From the NCBI GenBank assembly GCA_051294905.1, contig CM119372.1, positions 21,516,001 to 21,576,000 on the forward strand: a stretch of 60,000 bases of DNA, read 5' to 3'. Below are positions 11,444-19,931 of the stretch, in pieces. The notes beneath the pieces are model-generated. The model searched no databases, was not told the DNA's origin, and saw only the letters and a program-made list of their open reading frames with translations. The stretch comes from Botryllus schlosseri. Lineage: Eukaryota. The position numbers and the translations under genes are program-made. Position 1 is the stretch's first letter. Each line of letters starts with the position of its first letter.

Positions 11444-11897
11444 TTGGAGGAGAGTAAATAGTCAAGTTTACAGTGAATAAATTAGCTAGCAAAACGTGCA
11501 TCATTATATAGCCTTGAGGTCATTTCCAAACCCTGAACGGTTTCCATAAAATGCTGAATGCGTGGCATATCGAACAAGGTTGCTATTTTCATACGGTGAC
11601 ACGCTAATCCTATGACATACTGAACTCCGTATGAACTAGTGTCACCGTACGGAGTGTCATACGGAGTTTTGTATGTCATAGGATTGCAACGCTCAACTGA
11701 TTGCTAGCGGGACATTTTGTTACGGGCACGTGCAGGCCACCAGTAACATTGAAATGTTGCCATAATATTCCACGGCGGTGACGCAAGGACGTTTTCATCA
11801 TTATACGCCATACACTGTCGAACTTTGAGTAGGACATATGTTTCATTTTTTCTTCCAACCCAGGCAAGCGCAATCCAGTCCTGTTTGTTCAGGATCA

Positions 11898-12171
11898 TCA
11901 TATAAATTTAAACATGATTGTCATCACCGCAACATTTAGGAAGTAGCTTGCTTGTGCCCTTGCAGAATAACTAGTCGTAGTGCTTGGTACAGCTGTCGTA
12001 GCAACGCCCGTGACATTTGCAGCTTCTCCTAATTTACGATCAAATGACAAATGTTCTTCCTTCTCTTCCTTTGACTTGGTGGAATCACGTGCATTCTGCA
12101 TTTGAACCATGCTTGATATCTTCCTGTGTGTGTTGCACAAGCTTGATGAGCACGCATTGTAAACGCAGGAT
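11898..12171 (-). CDS. Gene 1 exon 4 (last): LU-type end motif SCVYNACSSSLCN, Thr-rich stalk, GPI-like hydrophobic tail
   Basis: Acceptor ttatttgcag|A completes CG+A (Arg) from exon 3; TGA at 11900-11898; ends TTTSYSARAQASYFLNVAVMTIMFKFI. Confidence 0.8.
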
Positions 12172-12724
12172 CTGCAAATAAGTAGGACTTCTGATAATAG
12201 CTCGTTGTGTAAATTGGTGTCCATAATAATAAACTGAAAAGTGTTGATCAGAAGTGGAAGTAGTCCTATGTCTTAATAGCCTGAGGAAGTACTGCAAGTA
12301 GGCAAACCTACATGATTACTGCGAAAAAGTAGAGTTACTTCGTTACTGACCACCCCTGCGTACTGCAGTGTTGGGATGACTCGAGTCATGACTTGACTCG
12401 AGTCAGACTCGAGTCGACTTTTTCGTATGACTTGACTTGACTCGAGTCACTTTGCAAAAATGACTTGACTTGACTTGACTCGACGCTTCAAAAATGTGGA
12501 TTGACTCGTGACTCGGAGCAAAATTTACGAGTCAATTTCAAGTCATCAATAAGCTAACTGTGTCGACTAAATCATTGTGAACGTTCGGATTATTCGCGAT
12601 ACGGCGCTGACACTTGTGAGAGCAACTAGTCATTCACTTATTGTACATTTCACTGGTCCTCCATTGTTACATCACAAATAAATTGACCGCAAACGAAATG
12701 ATCACGGCTTACGTTGTCGTAGGC

Positions 12725-13836
12725 CAGGGGTGGGCAAACTACGGCCCGCGGGCCGCATGCGGCCCGCCACGCCGTTTTGTGCGGCCCGCGAGAGTCTAAA
12801 GAAACTTTTTTTAAATTTTGATAAAATGCGTACTAAAAATCGAATTAATGCAAGGACTTGATTAACTTTTTCTTATTATATTTCACCATGATAATTCTAA
12901 GACAGTGGTTTTCAAACTCGTGGGCGCGCCCCCCTTGGGGGCGTGAAAGCATCTGAAAGGGGCGCGAAGCTGAGCTCGACTGAAAAAAGTTTTCGCGCTC
13001 CGCGCGATTTTCATGGAATTCATAGTTATTGCTATGTATTTAGTCTGAATTACATATTTAAAAATCTCTCATCCACAGTCGTAACCTTCCACGCCATCAA
13101 ACTACCCGTTAGGTTTGCTAGCATCCTGGTTGCGTTTTGTGATATGACGATAAGGGTGCGCGAAATCTTTGACCATCATAAGGGGGCGGGGCGTGTCTTA
13201 AAAAGTTTGAGAACCACTGATGTAAGGTAAATACTTGATATCACAGCGGGATAGCTGCAACGAGATTGACATAATTTGGATCACCAGTGAGATTTCAGAT
13301 TGCCCACTTCATTTTTAATTATTTGAGTGATGTGCTTATAAAAAACCGATTCGGGCGTGTCTTAGGTACATTCGTTGTCTGTATGCGTGGATTGGGGGTA
13401 TTTATATTTTATCTACACATAGTAGAAGCGTGTTTGAAGCTATGGTTATGATGCTGTCAGCATTGTGTGTCCTGGAACTGAGCCAAAAGTGGAATTACTA
13501 AATCTATGAACAGATCATTGCTCACAGATTTATATTTCAATCCTATTCTAAGAATCGGGCCAACCGCCTTTTATCTCTATAGTTTTGACAAATTGGTTAT
13601 TGAGGTCCGCCTGCCTATGAAATCTCGCCACTATATGTTTCTGACGCGTGTACGATATCATCAAAGCAATATTTGGCTTGCTTTAAATAAGCACATATAT
13701 TGTCTCCATGTCCTCACTATATAATCATATATCAATATTGCGTTTTGGTTTATGATCCCAATTTTATATAGTGCGGCCCGCGAATGAATTCAGATGTTGA
13801 ATGCGGCCCGCGAGCTCAAAAGTTTGCCCACCCCTG
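12725..13836. mobile_element. hAT MITE (caggggtgggcaaact; GGCCCGCG repeats)
   Basis: TIR plus perfect TSD tcgtaggc. Confidence 0.9.
12903..13219 (+). mobile_element. Short hAT MITE family C (cagtggtt.tcaaac)
   Basis: TIR pair; related copies 31022-31303, ~24690-24988 and split 56061-58095. Confidence 0.8.
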
Positions 13837-14445
13837 TCGTAGGCAGTAGTAGTAGTAGAGTGATAGAAACGTATCTCTGTTTCTTAGTCGACTCAGCGCT
13901 TACATTGAGCAGTGCTCACCTTTACCAACCCTCCTCTATGATTTAAATCGAATGATATAGTTAATGCGTTTATATTCTCACGGATGTGTGTAGATAGATG
14001 GGTAATGTATTGTACCATATCAATTTGTTTAAACTTCTCGAAGCTTCGTATTCGATCCTCTATTTTGGCTGATAATAACAGACTGTAGCATGTAACTAGT
14101 TAATCACGTATTTTATTAGCAGTTCTACGTGTGCGTGTGCGATACACCGCCTGTTTTCTTGTATATTTAACTTTATATTCGTTATTTGATTCAAGCTAAA
14201 TGGCCAATTAATCTGTTTTTCACGCAGCTGGCAAAATGTTATGACTTTGAATCATGACTCATATGTCGAAAATTCAATTTGACTTGAATTATGACTTGAC
14301 TCGTGACTTGACTTGACTTGACTCGACTTGACTCGAGTCACCTTCGAGAATCGATTGACTTGACTTGACTCGAGTCACCTTTGGAAATCGATTGACTTGA
14401 CTTGACTCGAGTCAAAATCTGCAATGACTCGAGATGACTCGTGAC

Positions 14446-16978
14446 CAATGTTCCCTCTAAGCTGCGCACGTGCGCAAATGCGCAGTGCTGAGACGGTCTC
14501 TGAGCACAGAAAATCTAGGTTGCGCACAAAAAATCTGAAGTGATGACTTTTTTTTTTAGTCGCTGTGCACTGTTCTTTAAGGGACCGCGCAAGCGCGCAG
14601 ACTCGTAAAAAATTAGAGGGAACATTGCCAGGGGCAAATAGTGTTATCGCTGAAGTCTGAAACCGAGGTACAAGCGTGGCTCGTAAAGGTAAATATTGCG
14701 CTCTGTGAAGAAATGATAATTTGCAATGACGTGCGCCTCACGAAAGAAATTTTTCTTTTAGTATATGGTCTCGTACGCGTGAGCGATACTGATATCATTT
14801 CAATAGCGCAATCTTAACTAGGAATGGCGAAATAACATGGTTTAACAAAGTTATAAATAACAACGGGCTAGCTCGAAGTTAATCATCGAGAAACTAGCGA
14901 ATAGTATTCTCCCCGTGGCATAAACATTGCACAAGATTTGCTGTACAATTGCATGCCGTGAATTTTCGAAGTCATCACTTACATATGGCAAATCTGATCA
15001 CGCATGGTGACATAGGATCCATCCCCTTGCAAACGTTGATCGGGAAATGCTTCAACTGCACACTGTAGGGCGTTGAATTACATCAGCTTCTCAGCAGCAC
15101 AAATTTTGATTTTATTCTATTCGTTTGAACGGGAAGCTTCCGTCGATAAGGTCATACGCTAATATTGTTCTTGCGTCAGTCATACTTGAATATTCGTATC
15201 ACAGTGGTGGGATGACTCGAGTCAACTTTTTCGTATGACTTGACTTGACTCGAGTCACTTTGCAAAAATTACTTGACTTGACTTGACTCAGCGCTTCAGA
15301 ATTGCGGATTGAATCATGACTCGGAGCAAAATTTTTGAGTCAATTTCAAGTCATCAATAAGTAAACGGTGTCGACCAAATCCCTGTATCATGTGTATATT
15401 CGGATTATTAGCGATACGCCCGTGACACTTGTGAGAGCAACCAGTCAGTCACATACTGTACGTTTCACTGGTCCTCCATTATTACATCACAAATATATTG
15501 GCCGCAAAGGAAATGATCACAGCTTAGGTTGCCGTAGTAGTTAGTAGATTAATTTAATAGCAACGTATCTCTGTTTCTTAGACGGCTCAGTGCTTACATT
15601 GCGCAGTGCTCACCTTTACCAACCATCTTGTATGATTTAAATAGAATGAATATAGTTCATGCATTTATATTCTCATGGATGTATAGCTGGGTAGTGTATC
15701 GTACCATATCATATCAATTTGTTTGAACTTCTCGAGGCTTCGTATTCGAATTTCTATTTCGGCTGATAATAACATTAATAACAGACTGTAGCATGTAACT
15801 ATACAGTTACTCACGTATTTTATTAGTAGTTCTACGTGTGCGTGTGCGATACAATGCAATTTTGCATGTATATTTAACTTTATATTCGTTATTTGATTCA
15901 AGATAAATGGCTAATTAATCTGTCTTTCACACAGCTGGCAAAATGTTATGACTTTGAATCGTCACTCTTACTTCGAAAATTCAATTTGACTTGAATTGTG
16001 ACTTGACTCGTGACTTGACTCGAGTCAACTCTAAAAATCGAGTGACTTGACTTGACTCGAGTCACCTTCGAGAATCGATTGACTTGACTTGACTCGAGTC
16101 AAAATCTGCAATGACTCGATTTGACTCGTGACTCGAAGGTTGTGACTTGATCCCAACACATGACTGTTTGTCTTGATAGTAATGAGTGCATTGCCGGTAT
16201 TAAGACATCACATCAGTGTTATATTTCGGTAGGCCTACATCGATCGCCTGTAAAGTATTGATTTGAAGTGCGTTCTCGTGCGTGTATGTCTACTAGTAAT
16301 CTATATGTCACCACATGTACGGATTTTTGTGACATCATAGATGGTTGCACAAAATTACGAATCGCCGTCTTTGCGGTTACAAGCGTCCATTTGTGTCACT
16401 ACAAGTGTTTGGCTAGCTGCTTGCCTGTGTGGTCAACGTTGAGTGAATACTTGCTAATTATGCTTCTCACTGTTTATAATGATCGCTATTAATGATGGCA
16501 AAACGAATGGGTAGTTTCTCATGCTCATCCCCTCACCAAGTCAAATTAACAAATAAGTGCGATCCGTTTAACATGGAATGGTTGTCGGAGCATGTAAAAA
16601 CGGAAGACAAAGCTAGGTAAGCCCGAAGACGTTCAACTATTATTTAGGGGTCCTACCTTTTGCAACACACCTGACTCGATCAGCTCTACCGGTAAATCTG
16701 ATTACGTGAGCAGAGGAAGCATAAAAATTGATAGCAATATAGGCTACCTACTCAATCGTGTATTATATAAAAAATGTTCGCGCTTCGCGCGATCATGCTC
16801 TACACCTACCGAACGGATAGCGTATTTAGATGATTAGCAGCGGCAAAAATCGCATAGACCGAGGGGGGTCTGGGGGGCGAAGCGCTCTCTGGGAGCCTAT
16901 TATAGCACTGTTGTCCAAGGGCCTGCGCAGTGAGTTGGCGTGTTTGCGCAGACTGGCGAAAAATTAGAGGGAACACTG
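14446..16978 (+). mobile_element. Composite hAT MITE family D (long form)
   Basis: caatgttccctcta...tagagggaacactg; perfect TSD ctcgtgac; extra internal right TIR ending 14628. Confidence 0.85.
15202..16161 (+). mobile_element. Family A MITE nested in D
   Basis: Colinear with 8298-9277; slightly degenerate TIRs; no clear TSD. Confidence 0.8.
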
Positions 16979-17030
16979 CTCGTGACTCGAAGGTAGTGAC
17001 TTGATCCCAACACTGCTGCGTAGTACTCAC

Positions 17031-17263
17031 CGTGGAGTGAAGCGTTCTCGCAATTCCGCAATGGAAGATCCTAGTTTGGTTGTAATTTTCGATACAGTCC
17101 CATTGAAGGCCCAGGCGAGACTGTCGAAAAATCCGACGTTTCGCTCGCTCGTCACAATGATCCACTTGAAATAATCTTTGTAAAGCTGTTTGATGTCTTC
17201 GCGACCCAGAATTCGCATTAGTCGAATGTAGAATGAGAAATCCGGGAAGGCATTCAATATCTC
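17031..17263 (-). CDS. Gene 1 exon 3 (EILNAFPDF...RERFTP)
   Basis: Acceptor tttctatacag|GAG phase 0; donor CG|gtgagt phase 2; 233 nt open. Confidence 0.85.
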
Positions 17264-17417
17264 CTGTATAGAAATAGTTCAATTGGTTTGATGTAGTGTA
17301 TAGTCAAATGTGGTATCGCTTAACTTTTGTGGGGCAAAATCGTTTCTTGGCAACAGCAAGTTTTCAAAAATGTTCCATGGGGCCTCTATAATTAGTCGTG
17401 TGATTATAATTACTTAC

Positions 17418-19075
17418 ATGGTAGATAGTTCCATTTATGGTATTAATTTCATTGGCGAGAGCAAATGGAAGGTCCACATTGATGTCTACGACATATGAAT
17501 AGAGCTGTTTGGAGAAATCCTCATAAGCCTTGTACTGTTTCGCATGGCACTCTTCATACGCATCGTCGTACATGTAATAACAGTTGTAATACTCGGGTCC
17601 GTGATATGAGAGATTGAAGTATTGAACGACGCTCATTGCGATTCTAGGGTATTCCGATTTAGGGTACAGTAACTCATATGTTTCGACAACATTTTGAGCT
17701 ACCTTCAAATGCACACTTGCGTTATTCACGGGCGTCATGATTAAATCCTGCAAGTTATTTAACAACGGTTTCGCCAGCCGCGGAATGGCGTACCCCAGTT
17801 TTATTATGACGCGTTCCAAGACGTATCCAAGATCGAAAACAGGCCAATCACTGAATCCATCCTGCAACGTTGTGAAGATGATATCAATTTCGTGTTTACG
17901 ATCGCTGAATAGCGTATATGTTGCTCGCGATAGATTGATAACCAGTAAGTTGATTCGTGGATAGAGAGGACTGAACTGTGGCTGAACAAGTACCGTTTTC
18001 TGCAAGATGAAATGTACGAATTCGCTCATGTTAGATTTCTTCGCAGTAATATTCGGCATGCTGAAGTCAATTGATTCAATTTCTTCCGCAAGCGTGCTGT
18101 AGATTTTACCTATTTCCGTTTCCTCGCCAGGAAAAAGCTTGTAGTAAATTCCTGGCAGCCACGTGATAAGCAAATCTATGTCAACAGTCGGGATTTGTCC
18201 AAACCACGACACATATAGCTTGTTGAAAGCTCCTGACAGCTTTTCAGTATCTGCGGTTACAGTGCTTTCATGTGATAAAAGCACTGCGGCCCAGTGTATT
18301 ACGTTGCCATAATTCCCATTTACCAGATTTTCCACTAAATCGGGTGCGCTGTTCAGAATTGGGTTCAGATAATGTGAGTATTCATCAGGGATTTTGACAT
18401 TGGCTTGAATAGTGCTGGTAATGTTGACAATGGATTGCTTGGGTTGGTGTCTGTTTAGATCTCCAAGAAGTTTATAGGCCATCTCATACCAGTCATCGAC
18501 GCTCAAATACGTCGGTAGCACGGATTTGATTAAACCTGGCAAATGAGTAGCCAGAGGCAAAAAGTCAGAGTCCTGAAGGTCCTGTATCGTTTGCTGTGTC
18601 ATGAAATTCCCTAGAAATGAGTAGATTTGAGATGCTACGTCCAGGTCTGAGGTTCCAAGTTCACCTAACGTAGTCATGAACTCTTTTACTGTAGGATCAA
18701 CATGTGGCACAGCGGGCCAGTTCCTGTCTTCATAAGGCTCTGTGTACCCCGGTGGTTTAAGTGCCAGATTCATCAAGTTCGCGAATTTGTCTTTCAGAGG
18801 CAATGCCTTTCCCATGTTGAAACCTAAATTTTCCAAGAATGTGTAGCAACCGGTTATGAATGATTCGGTTCCGGTTCCGTTTGAAAACAGGGTTCGTAGA
18901 CTTTCGGTAATATTTTCGTTCATGTCTACGCTGAACGCACGTAATTTATCGTCCATGCTGGGAAGCATGTTGAGTAAATCGGTTGGATCGAGGTCACTGG
19001 CACCGCCAAACAATTTCTCGCAAGTAAGCGACGGAGAATATGACTTCGTGATACACCCGCCGTAACGCATTCCCA
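17418..19075 (-). CDS. Gene 1 exon 2 (1658 nt): LU Cys4-Cys5 followed by a large helical, N-glycosylation-rich region
   Basis: Lies within the 583-aa ORF; acceptor ttccttttcag|TG phase 1; donor CAT|gtaagt phase 0. Confidence 0.9.
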
Positions 19076-19157
19076 CTGAAAAGGAACAGTAAGTGTTAAG
19101 TCTGTTTCTATGCAAACTCTATATATCGCGTATCGAAGTATGAGTCCGACTATATAA

Positions 19158-19709
19158 CAGGGACGGGCAACTTACGGCCCGCGGGCCGGATCCGGCCCGG
19201 GAAGGGATTTTGATCGACCCGCAGAGAGTTTCTACCCTAAAAGTGAAATTCTATTCTGAAAGTATTGACCAATTTTATGCGTCACAGAATGAATCCATGT
19301 TTGCCAACCTGGGTAAGACGGACATGAAACTACTTATTGTTCTGTATGGGCTTGCATACATTTTTGACCATTAACATAAACGAGACAAGGCTGCGTTCCA
19401 ATATAACTGATGTTCTCGTGCAGTCGTTAATGAGGGTTTCTATTTACGACATGCAGCCAGAGTTCAAACAACTTGTTGATAACTTTGACCGACCACATAT
19501 ATCTGATTGACTGCAACAGCTATTGCTAACAAATTCATTAAATACTGTTTTGGTCTCTATGCTTTACACTTTAAGTTTACATTAAATACGATTTAGTCCT
19601 TGGATAGGTGGATAAATACGCGATTAATGTAAATATTCTGTAATCCGGCCTGCCGAGCACTTCATTTTTTCATATCCGGCCCACCGACCGGAGAAGTTGC
19701 CCGCCCCTG
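19158..19709. mobile_element. hAT MITE filling most of gene 1 intron 1
   Basis: TIR caggg.cgggcaactt; TSD ctatataa/ctctataa; inverted copy 57176-57719. Confidence 0.85.
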
Positions 19710-19735
19710 CTCTATAAGAATACATATTTGCGTAC

Positions 19736-19931
19736 CTTCCAAATCAGTTCGCGGGATTTGAACCATAACCTCTTGCATGAAGCAGTCGCTGTTGTCTTTG
19801 CAAGCCTTTTCACTCCAGTGATACAGCGGAATGCCTGACACAGACATGTTGAAACCTTCGTGACATTGTAAGCCGTCGATGCCGCGCGCGCACAGTGTTC
19901 CTACCAATAACAGCAATCGGTACAATTTCAT
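19736..19931 (-). CDS. Gene 1 exon 1: signal peptide and start of Ly6/uPAR-like domain (LQCHEG...KAC...DCF)
   Basis: aaaATG; MKLYRLLLLVGTLCARGIDG|LQC; donor GAA G|gtacgc phase 1 matches exon 2. Confidence 0.85.

Follow-up and report, generated by a model that had tools for sequence, protein, structure and literature searches.

Ly6/uPAR (LU) or three-finger folds, which include snake toxins, CD59, uPAR, Lynx, and the TGF-beta receptors, are among the best-studied small extracellular folds. LU domains are approximately 80 residues long, their eight core cysteines are paired 1-3, 2-4, 5-6, and 7-8, and they are known to diversify through changes in their loops and through tandem duplication. A gene on the minus strand of a 60,000-nucleotide stretch of the Botryllus schlosseri genome (C2:21516001-21576000 of the 495-Mb assembly; hereafter, the window) raises the question of whether such a domain can be split by a large nested insert and be completed from both ends of the chain. 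A first-pass annotation of the window had proposed this arrangement, with a three-finger domain interrupted by approximately 613 residues of helices in a probably glycosylphosphatidylinositol (GPI)-anchored protein. The gene was found to belong to a family in which five cysteines before and three cysteines after a helical insert are conserved, and its N-terminal half was modeled as LU-like. The reading considered moderately probable is that the protein is a GPI-anchored surface glycoprotein, in which a variable helical array is clasped by an LU core split at finger III.

The coding sequence was assembled from four minus-strand exons, namely, 19931-19736, 19075-17418, 17263-17031, and 12171-11898. 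These exons of 196, 1658, 233, and 274 nt were spliced to 2361 nt and 786 codons, with intron phases of 1, 0, and 2, GT..AG boundaries at all introns, and a frame closed by TGA at 11900-11898. Thus, the four in-frame exons of the first-pass annotation were reproduced exactly. As exon 2 lies within an open frame of 584 codons, compared with 165 codons for the next longest frame in the window, and as its homologues reach an E value of 1e-102, it was not regarded as a chance frame. The cysteines of the protein were located at residues 14, 23, 44, 50, 73, 84, 142, 564, 575, 698, 703, and 708, and the interval of 613 residues from C84 to C698 contained only three of them. The cysteine positions and this sparse interval were as first annotated, and so were the LQC start, the C-x4-C-N motif, the Thr-rich stalk, and the hydrophobic end.

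Exon 1 (19736-19931) begins with the ATG at 19931-19929 and encodes a hydrophobic signal peptide (residues 1-20), directly followed by L21-Q-C23 and then by C44 and C50, and it ends in phase 1. Of the LU-like N-terminal half (N-half), this exon would supply finger I together with the first of the two arms of finger II. After intron 1 (19076-19735; 660 nt), the first part of exon 2 (19020-19075) would complete finger II with its other arm, which bears R-Y-G-G-C73, and then continue to T-C84-E, the last of the five cysteines of the N-half; the YGGC and TCE motifs were conserved in the homologue alignment (A1). The remainder of exon 2 (17418-19019) encodes the main all-helical region (residues 85-618), with one clear unit of approximately 115 residues at 291-404. 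Intron 2 (17264-17417; 154 nt) is followed by exon 3 (17031-17263), which encodes the final helices within the insert (residues 619-696) and ends in phase 2, and intron 3 (12172-17030; 4859 nt) separates it from the last exon. There, the LU-like C-terminal half (C-half; 12132-12170) consists of S-C698-x4-C703-x4-C708-N709. The subsequent stalk (11976-12131) is charged and then Thr/Ser-rich, with one N-x-T sequon (N748), and in the C-terminal part (11898-11975), a run of small residues precedes 15 hydrophobic residues that close the chain, with no cytoplasmic tail behind them. By hydropathy only, this end would be of the GPI-attachment type, as its best 12-residue window scored 1.87 at residue 772 of 786 and was preceded by S/A-rich residues. 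In total, 12 N-glycosylation sequons were counted in the protein.

As no sequencing run recorded as RNA was listed for this stretch, the reads of four runs, including X1, X16, and a 3'-biased single-cell RNA run, were mapped to the window. One contig each of X16 and X1 skipped exactly 19076-19735 (joint 19736/19075), and one X16 contig skipped exactly 17264-17417, with 180 nt on its shorter side. Therefore, the gene truly contains introns 1 and 2, and its spliced RNA is present in both X16 and X1. Moreover, as an X16 contig extends to 19965, the 5' untranslated region is at least 34 nt long. The window gene is real and expressed. Within 17418-19931, which covers exons 1 and 2, the contigs of X1 and X16 differed from the window sequence at no fewer than 22 exonic sites, amounting to approximately 3-4% in some contigs. 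Among the exonic sites listed, 9 were synonymous and 13 were not, and the random expectation was 21.7% synonymous. These variants suggest that the protein, although quite polymorphic, is under mild purifying selection.

Homologues were found in another tunicate. A HMMER search with exon 2 against 1.84 billion representatives returned 13 proteins at E 0.001 or better, and the best match (1e-102, 37% identity) begins at its own residue 69, which fits a prefix encoded by exon 1. When 10 of the matched clusters were looked up, all named members were from Styela clava and nearly all were termed "uncharacterized", while five of the 10 were unnamed Logan contigs. A word-based search found nothing with exon 2 and only one new Styela protein with alignment A1. 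The four exon translations had no Pfam match at E 1 or better, the best ESM Atlas scores for exon 2 and the N-half (0.81 and 0.76) were beneath the meaningful level, and none of the four matches (E 0.12 or worse) from a sequence search of the PDB with profile A1 was LU, all of them falling within the helical region. As the relatives found came only from Styela clava, unnamed transcript contigs, and paralogues of the same genome, the family appears to be restricted to tunicates.

The alignment showed one architecture throughout. A signal peptide is followed by L-x-C-x-E-G-F-N .. C .. C-F-x-Q-E .. Y-G-G-C .. T-C-E-x-L-F-G, at least 600 helical residues, P-[DE]-S-C-K-x-x-x-C-x-x-x-L-C-N, a Ser/Thr stalk, often T-T-S-G-S, and a hydrophobic end. 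Six distinct full-length homologues were available, namely, P0005, P0025, P0006, P0008, P0009, and P0024 (P0021 repeats the module of P0008). Each of these and the window protein had L-x-C-x-E/N-G, five N-terminal cysteines, and exactly one C-x4-C-x4-C-N, and P0008 contained exactly the five plus three cysteines and no others. A hydrophobic C-terminus without a tail was present in the window protein and in six of seven homologues, with T-T-S-G-S preceding the tails of the homologues.

While the cysteine clusters were kept, the length between them was not. In the homologue P0010 (2634 aa), five of the 10 cysteines lie at 25-89 and the last three at 2536-2546, with an internal pair at 2165 and 2199, so that 2447 residues separate core Cys 5 from core Cys 6. 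At the other extreme, the helical exon of the C6 locus (L011) has only approximately 364 codons. Across the family, the helical region between the clusters ranges from approximately 360 to approximately 2450 residues, and homologues of variable insert length, for which the first-pass annotation had suggested a search, were therefore found with both clusters intact. Since the number of conserved cysteines is odd on either side of the insert, one disulfide would bridge it. A hidden Markov model (HMM) of the unit of approximately 115 residues, which matches the rows used for building it by construction, gave approximately 17-21 matches end to end in the giant proteins and one strong match in the window protein, at 291-404. 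The insert was therefore taken to be an array of diverged helical units of variable number.

The same genome contained at least 11 paralogous loci. Exon-2-like open reading frames (ORFs) flank the window gene at distances of 23 kb on one side (55% identity) and 50 kb on the opposite side (28%), a cluster of four paralogues was found at C2:3.08-3.17 Mb, and an ORF of 2494 codons was found at C2:13.44 Mb. Homologous exon-1-like sequences preceded each of the exon-2-like ORFs and were present at four further loci; at L011, L013, and L014, they were followed by an x-R-Y-G-G-C exon, and at L012, the stretch examined held the exon-1-like ORF only. In a tblastn search with the spliced model, all four pieces were recovered in paralogue A, and in paralogue B, the pieces of exons 2 and 3 lay in a single fused exon between exon 1 and the last exon. 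The C-x4-C-x4-C-N motif was encoded downstream on the expected strand in six of the seven paralogous genes examined (L003 and L010 being the same gene), and it was not found at L012, whose examined stretch held exon 1 only. Five of the six paralogous C-half exons were preceded by "ag" and one base. In all seven C-half exons of the genome, the three cysteines and the asparagine were invariant, and a Pfam search with these exons returned nothing relevant.

The largest paralogue (L015:6878-7477 (-), L016, and L008) combines an N-half exon at C2:13446784-13446909 with the 2494-codon ORF of helical units. Its C-half has no preceding intron and is followed by a Ser/Thr mucin-like stalk of approximately 170 residues and a hydrophobic end. 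P0010 of Styela has the same build.

Whether the two cysteine clusters belong to an LU fold was approached by structure. The model of the N-half (residues 1-100; mean predicted local distance difference test score (pLDDT) 67.6) consisted of four strands in two hairpins. It was compared with 48,161 chains by VIA-align, which is independent of Foldseek. Proteins of the LU/three-finger class occupied all of the first 10 rows and 28 of the 50 rows listed. The matches included GPIHBP1 (Z 5.3, root mean square deviation 2.7, 61 residues aligned), TEX101 (Z 5.2), CD177 (Z 5.0), Lynx1 (Z 4.2, chain residues 1-61 of 74), and CD59 (Z 3.2, residues 0-58 of 78), as well as Prod1, Lynx2, PSCA, kappa-bungarotoxin, bucandin, uPAR, C4.4A, and ectodomains of TGF-beta-family receptors. 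The N-half model covered approximately the first 50-62 residues of the LU domains and left their C-terminal Cys-Cys-x4-Cys-Asn part unmatched. The weight of this search lies in the consistency of the match list.

A contiguous comparator was available in the same genome. At L017:3-980 (-) (C7:23.36 Mb), a single open frame runs from a signal peptide through a three-finger ectodomain, which closes with C-C-D-K-D-Y-C-N, and a transmembrane segment into the beginning of a kinase; this is a TGF-beta/activin type I receptor-like gene. By hhalign, Cys 1-4 of the family were in register with this receptor-type ectodomain (P 0.0092, probability 4.4%). The C-S-S-S-L-C-N segment was aligned with its C-D-K-D-Y-C-N, which was not significant (P 0.092), and the N-half gave no meaningful alignment with a second LU-type ORF (L018; P 0.16).

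On these grounds, the following arrangement is proposed. Cleavage of the signal peptide would leave a mature chain starting with L-Q-C, of which the first 65 residues or so would form two long beta-hairpins, equivalent to fingers I and II of the LU fold. Past the fifth cysteine (C84), the chain would leave the core for an all-helical array of approximately 610 residues, composed of diverged units of approximately 115 residues, and would then return to finish the core with S-C-x4-C-x4-C-N. C698 would pair with C84 in the canonical finger-III disulfide, and C703-C708-N would form the canonical C-terminal mini-loop. The Ser/Thr stalk and the GPI-type signal would keep the protein on the outer membrane leaflet, so that the LU core would be a disulfide-locked clasp near the membrane, tying both ends of the helical array. 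The array itself would be the variable surface, presumably ligand-binding or adhesive, and the paralogues would have kept the clasp and changed the number of helical units. The 12 sequons and a Styela model that is fused to GPS and 7tm_2 domains suggest an extracellular binding or adhesion role.

This fusion model is P0021 (1398 aa), a Styela clava RefSeq model in which the whole module, without its hydrophobic tail, is joined to GPS and 7tm_2. In an earlier annotation, it was represented by two separate genes, P0008 and P0022; the fusion is annotation-level evidence only. Another RefSeq model of the same species, P0023 (3513 aa), has a second N-half at 2654-2780 and C-x4-C-x4-C-N at both 2536 and 3432, and looks like two neighboring genes of the family merged by annotation.

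Several observations weigh against the proposed reading. The first concerns the 3' end of the gene, for which introns 1 and 2 were seen in contigs but the joint of exon 3 to exon 4 (17031/12171) was not among the 15 joints listed of 36. Moreover, P0011 and P0013 are predicted proteins whose ends coincide exactly with the boundary of these exons, and read-through of the exon-3 donor meets an in-frame TGA immediately; therefore, exon 3 could also end a shorter, tail-less product. On this basis, the gene model could be wrong at its 3' end, with the protein ending at exon 3 (..T-P-R-stop) and 12171-11898 lying in another transcript, which was judged very improbable. However, any phase-2 donor of the form GTGAGT or GTAAGT is expected to yield a stop when it is read through. 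Exon 3 was aligned with the homologues up to "..LR..F.P", from which they run on into "SC..C..CN"; the window sequence "..RERFTP" and, beyond it, "RSCVYNAC" was aligned without a gap to the homologue sequence "..RNMFAPDSCKYEHC". As P0009 (762 aa) is encoded on a contig of 2489 nt, the N-half, the helices, and the C-half form one uninterrupted ORF there.

The paralogues and the read depth also argue against an end at exon 3. In each of the two tandem paralogues, the equivalent exon follows the equivalent intron, and the last intron is in phase 2 at the same codon in the window gene (CCA CG/gtgagt .. ag/A TCC TGC, with slashes at the junctions), paralogue A (CCA CA/gtaagt .. ag/A TCC TGC), and paralogue B (CCT GA/gtaagt .. 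ag/G TCG TGT). In the 3'-biased single-cell run, the reads on 11700-12261 were solely in the sense of the minus-strand transcript, at a depth of 1.6-2.5 compared with 0-0.64 on exons 2-3, and the depth of X16 was 8.8 on exon 4 and 6-10 on exons 2-3. From the homologues and the tandem paralogues with the same phase-2 intron, the joining of exons 3 and 4 is very likely.

Intron 3 is 4.86 kb long because two copies of a high-copy repeat of approximately 1 kb lie inside it; its equivalent is only approximately 0.5 kb in both tandem paralogues. Direct repeat families D1-D6 with 85-91% identity were recognized in the intron. The two element copies, at 12406-14482 and 15214-16170, are 85-91% identical and rich in GACTCGAGTCAAGTCAAGTCA-like tandem motifs, and one of them is broken by a further insert at approximately 12723-13862. 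As the depth on this element was very high in all four runs, it is a high-copy, transcribed repeat family.

The second group of adverse observations concerns the relationship to LU proteins. The Pfam LU profiles (UPAR_LY6 PF00021 and CD59 PF25152) stayed below threshold on the window exons and nine homologues. This had been anticipated in the first-pass annotation, according to which profile searches would miss the split domain. CD59 had sub-threshold matches on the C-half of two of the nine homologues (E 0.048 and 0.5; 13.8 and 10.5 bits, with a cut-off of 33.9). Over the whole genome, PF00021 matched four other loci, none of the split-LU family, and PF25152 had two weak matches elsewhere. 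Foldseek with the N-half model returned no LU match, its best hits being ribosomal protein chains at E 0.12 or worse. In addition, none of the VIA-align Z values of the N-half exceeded 5.3, and values so low can reflect a common arrangement. A word-based search with the N-terminal 100 residues against shorter proteins found nothing, and no short, unsplit relative was found. The LU likeness could therefore have arisen by convergence in a lineage-specific, cysteine-capped helical-repeat protein without an evolutionary link to Ly6/uPAR. This is an improbable explanation, as several hallmarks coincide, namely, L-x-C after the signal peptide, the order of the cysteines, C-x4-C-N, and a GPI-type tail in the last exon. 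LU proteins also fill the top of the structure search, and the hhalign register of Cys 1-4 points in the same direction.

The third group concerns the packing of the two halves. A full-length AlphaFold model was obtained for the homologue P0005 from an alignment of 17 rows (mean pLDDT 75; predicted template modeling score 0.48). It showed four strands at 22-31, 34-43, 48-59, and 64-75 (pLDDT 57-71) and approximately 30 helices from 84 to 710, mostly with pLDDT 80-93. The C-half (715-725) had a pLDDT of 34-44 and no strand, and it was not confidently placed. Foldseek with this model found nothing at E 0.001 or better; VIA-align gave a best Z of 7.5 with long-helix proteins only, covering 496-711, and no fold was recognized for the helical region, the larger part of which this comparison barely probed. 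Furthermore, the second cysteine (+3) of L-x-C-x-x-C is absent from the window protein and the six homologues, as in the 8-Cys, and not the 10-Cys, class. At Cys 6 and Cys 7, C-x4-C takes the place of the canonical adjacent pair; this spacing had been raised as a caveat at the outset, and it proved constant across the C-half exons.

The two halves of P0005 (21-100 and 690-730) were also docked to each other without the alignment. The interaction score (ipSAE) was 0.35 (0.35, 0.36, and 0.35 in the individual runs), compared with 0.02 for the best of three controls, the pLDDT of the partners was at least 53, and the runs agreed in at least 67% of contacts. In the calibration, passes at 0.60 or less were obtained by five of 78 solved complexes and by all four mismatches that passed, and the docking was accordingly graded as only weak support. 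Of the split three-finger fold as first annotated, the LU-like N-half found support in its best structural matches, but the placement of the C-half was not reproduced in the full-length model.

A less likely alternative follows from these points. The N-terminal 65 residues could be a self-contained, degenerate LU-like module of two hairpins, and C-x4-C-x4-C-N a separate knot or staple, perhaps held by one bond and without a canonical fold. The unplaced C-half and the non-adjacent Cys 6 and Cys 7 favor this explanation, and so does the N-half, which was modeled alone as a four-stranded sheet. However, the five plus three cysteines are conserved over inserts of approximately 360-2450 residues, and those eight are the only cysteines of P0008. 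The terminal C-x4-C-N matches the canonical end of LU domains, and hhalign paired it, albeit without significance, with C-C-x4-C-N of a three-finger receptor ectodomain. Moreover, the LU structures aligned to the N-half were left without exactly their C-terminal segment. The split LU core with a GPI-type end is the preferred reading.

The last adverse observation concerns the anchor. At L011:5505-5600 (-), L013:9226-9360 (+), and L014:7314-7400 (+), the chain ends in K-T-E-L, K-S-E-L, or K-L-E-L and a stop, 16-32 residues past C-x4-C-x4-C-N. These three paralogues have neither a stalk nor a hydrophobic tail, and therefore not all members are GPI-anchored. As the endings are KDEL-like, these proteins may be soluble residents of the endoplasmic reticulum rather than surface proteins. 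For the family as a whole, chances are about even that an LU domain was turned into a clasp, with a foreign helical array of approximately 3 to approximately 20 units in place of finger III and with ends that comprise a GPI anchor, a mucin stalk, K-x-E-L, and possibly an adhesion G protein-coupled receptor (GPCR).

Outside 11898-19931, no further recognizable gene was detected in the window (1-60000) by a crude Pfam test of open frames; the 24 other frames of at least 100 codons had no match at E 0.01 or better.

If the split-LU reading is true, it would give LU domains their first nested-domain architecture, and the proteins would make up a new receptor family of the cell surface, specific to this lineage. 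It would also imply that the LU fold tolerates a nested domain and can serve as a membrane-proximal clasp. HMM-based LU censuses would miss such members; in an invertebrate LU survey (PMC13719153, 2026), for example, a term search found no mention of tunicates, inserts, or split domains. A literature search returned no paper on an LU domain with a nested insert or on a split-LU family of tunicates, and the arrangement thus appears to be undescribed for this well-studied domain. The family has so far been annotated only as "uncharacterized" in Styela clava, and its sizeable paralogue clusters suggest that it likely matters for ascidian cell-surface biology.

Compared with known systems, the family resembles the single-domain LU proteins, such as CD59, Lynx1, PSCA, and GPIHBP1, with which it shares L-x-C after the signal peptide, eight ordered core cysteines, the C-x4-C-N end, and a Ser/Thr stalk with a hydrophobic GPI-type C-terminus in the last exon. 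As described in PMC4839075, the LU hallmarks are L-x-C-x-x-C at the mature N-terminus, C-C-x4-C-N, and five disulfides, and Ly6 genes have three exons, with the signal peptide in the first, the mature chain in later exons, and the GPI signal in the last. The split-LU family differs in the 613 residues (2447 in a homologue) between core Cys 5 and Cys 6, in longer fingers I and II, in the absence of the extra disulfide of finger I, in the four residues between Cys 6 and Cys 7, and in being missed by the Pfam LU profiles. Unlike Ly6 genes, the window gene has four exons, and its signal peptide shares the first of them with the initial 45 residues of the mature chain; as in Ly6 genes, its last exon holds the GPI-type tail and the C-x4-C-N end.

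The ectodomains of TGF-beta, activin, and BMP receptors are similar in having an 8-Cys-type three-finger fold without the second cysteine of L-x-C-x-x-C; Cys 1-4 of one such ectodomain in the same genome are in register with those of the family, and several receptor ectodomains were among the structural matches. However, their domain is contiguous and followed by a transmembrane helix and a kinase, and the alignment, at a probability of 4.4%, is weak. The N-terminal adhesion modules of adhesion GPCRs are comparable in that P0021 sets the whole module before GPS and 7tm_2, by automatic annotation only, whereas the window gene lacks both GPS and 7TM. Finally, uPAR, C4.4A, CD177, and TEX101 are likewise larger GPI-anchored ectodomains built around LU folds, and TEX101 and CD177 were among the top four structural matches. 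These proteins have grown by tandem duplication of whole LU domains, in contrast to the helical array that would be nested within a single LU domain in the split-LU family.

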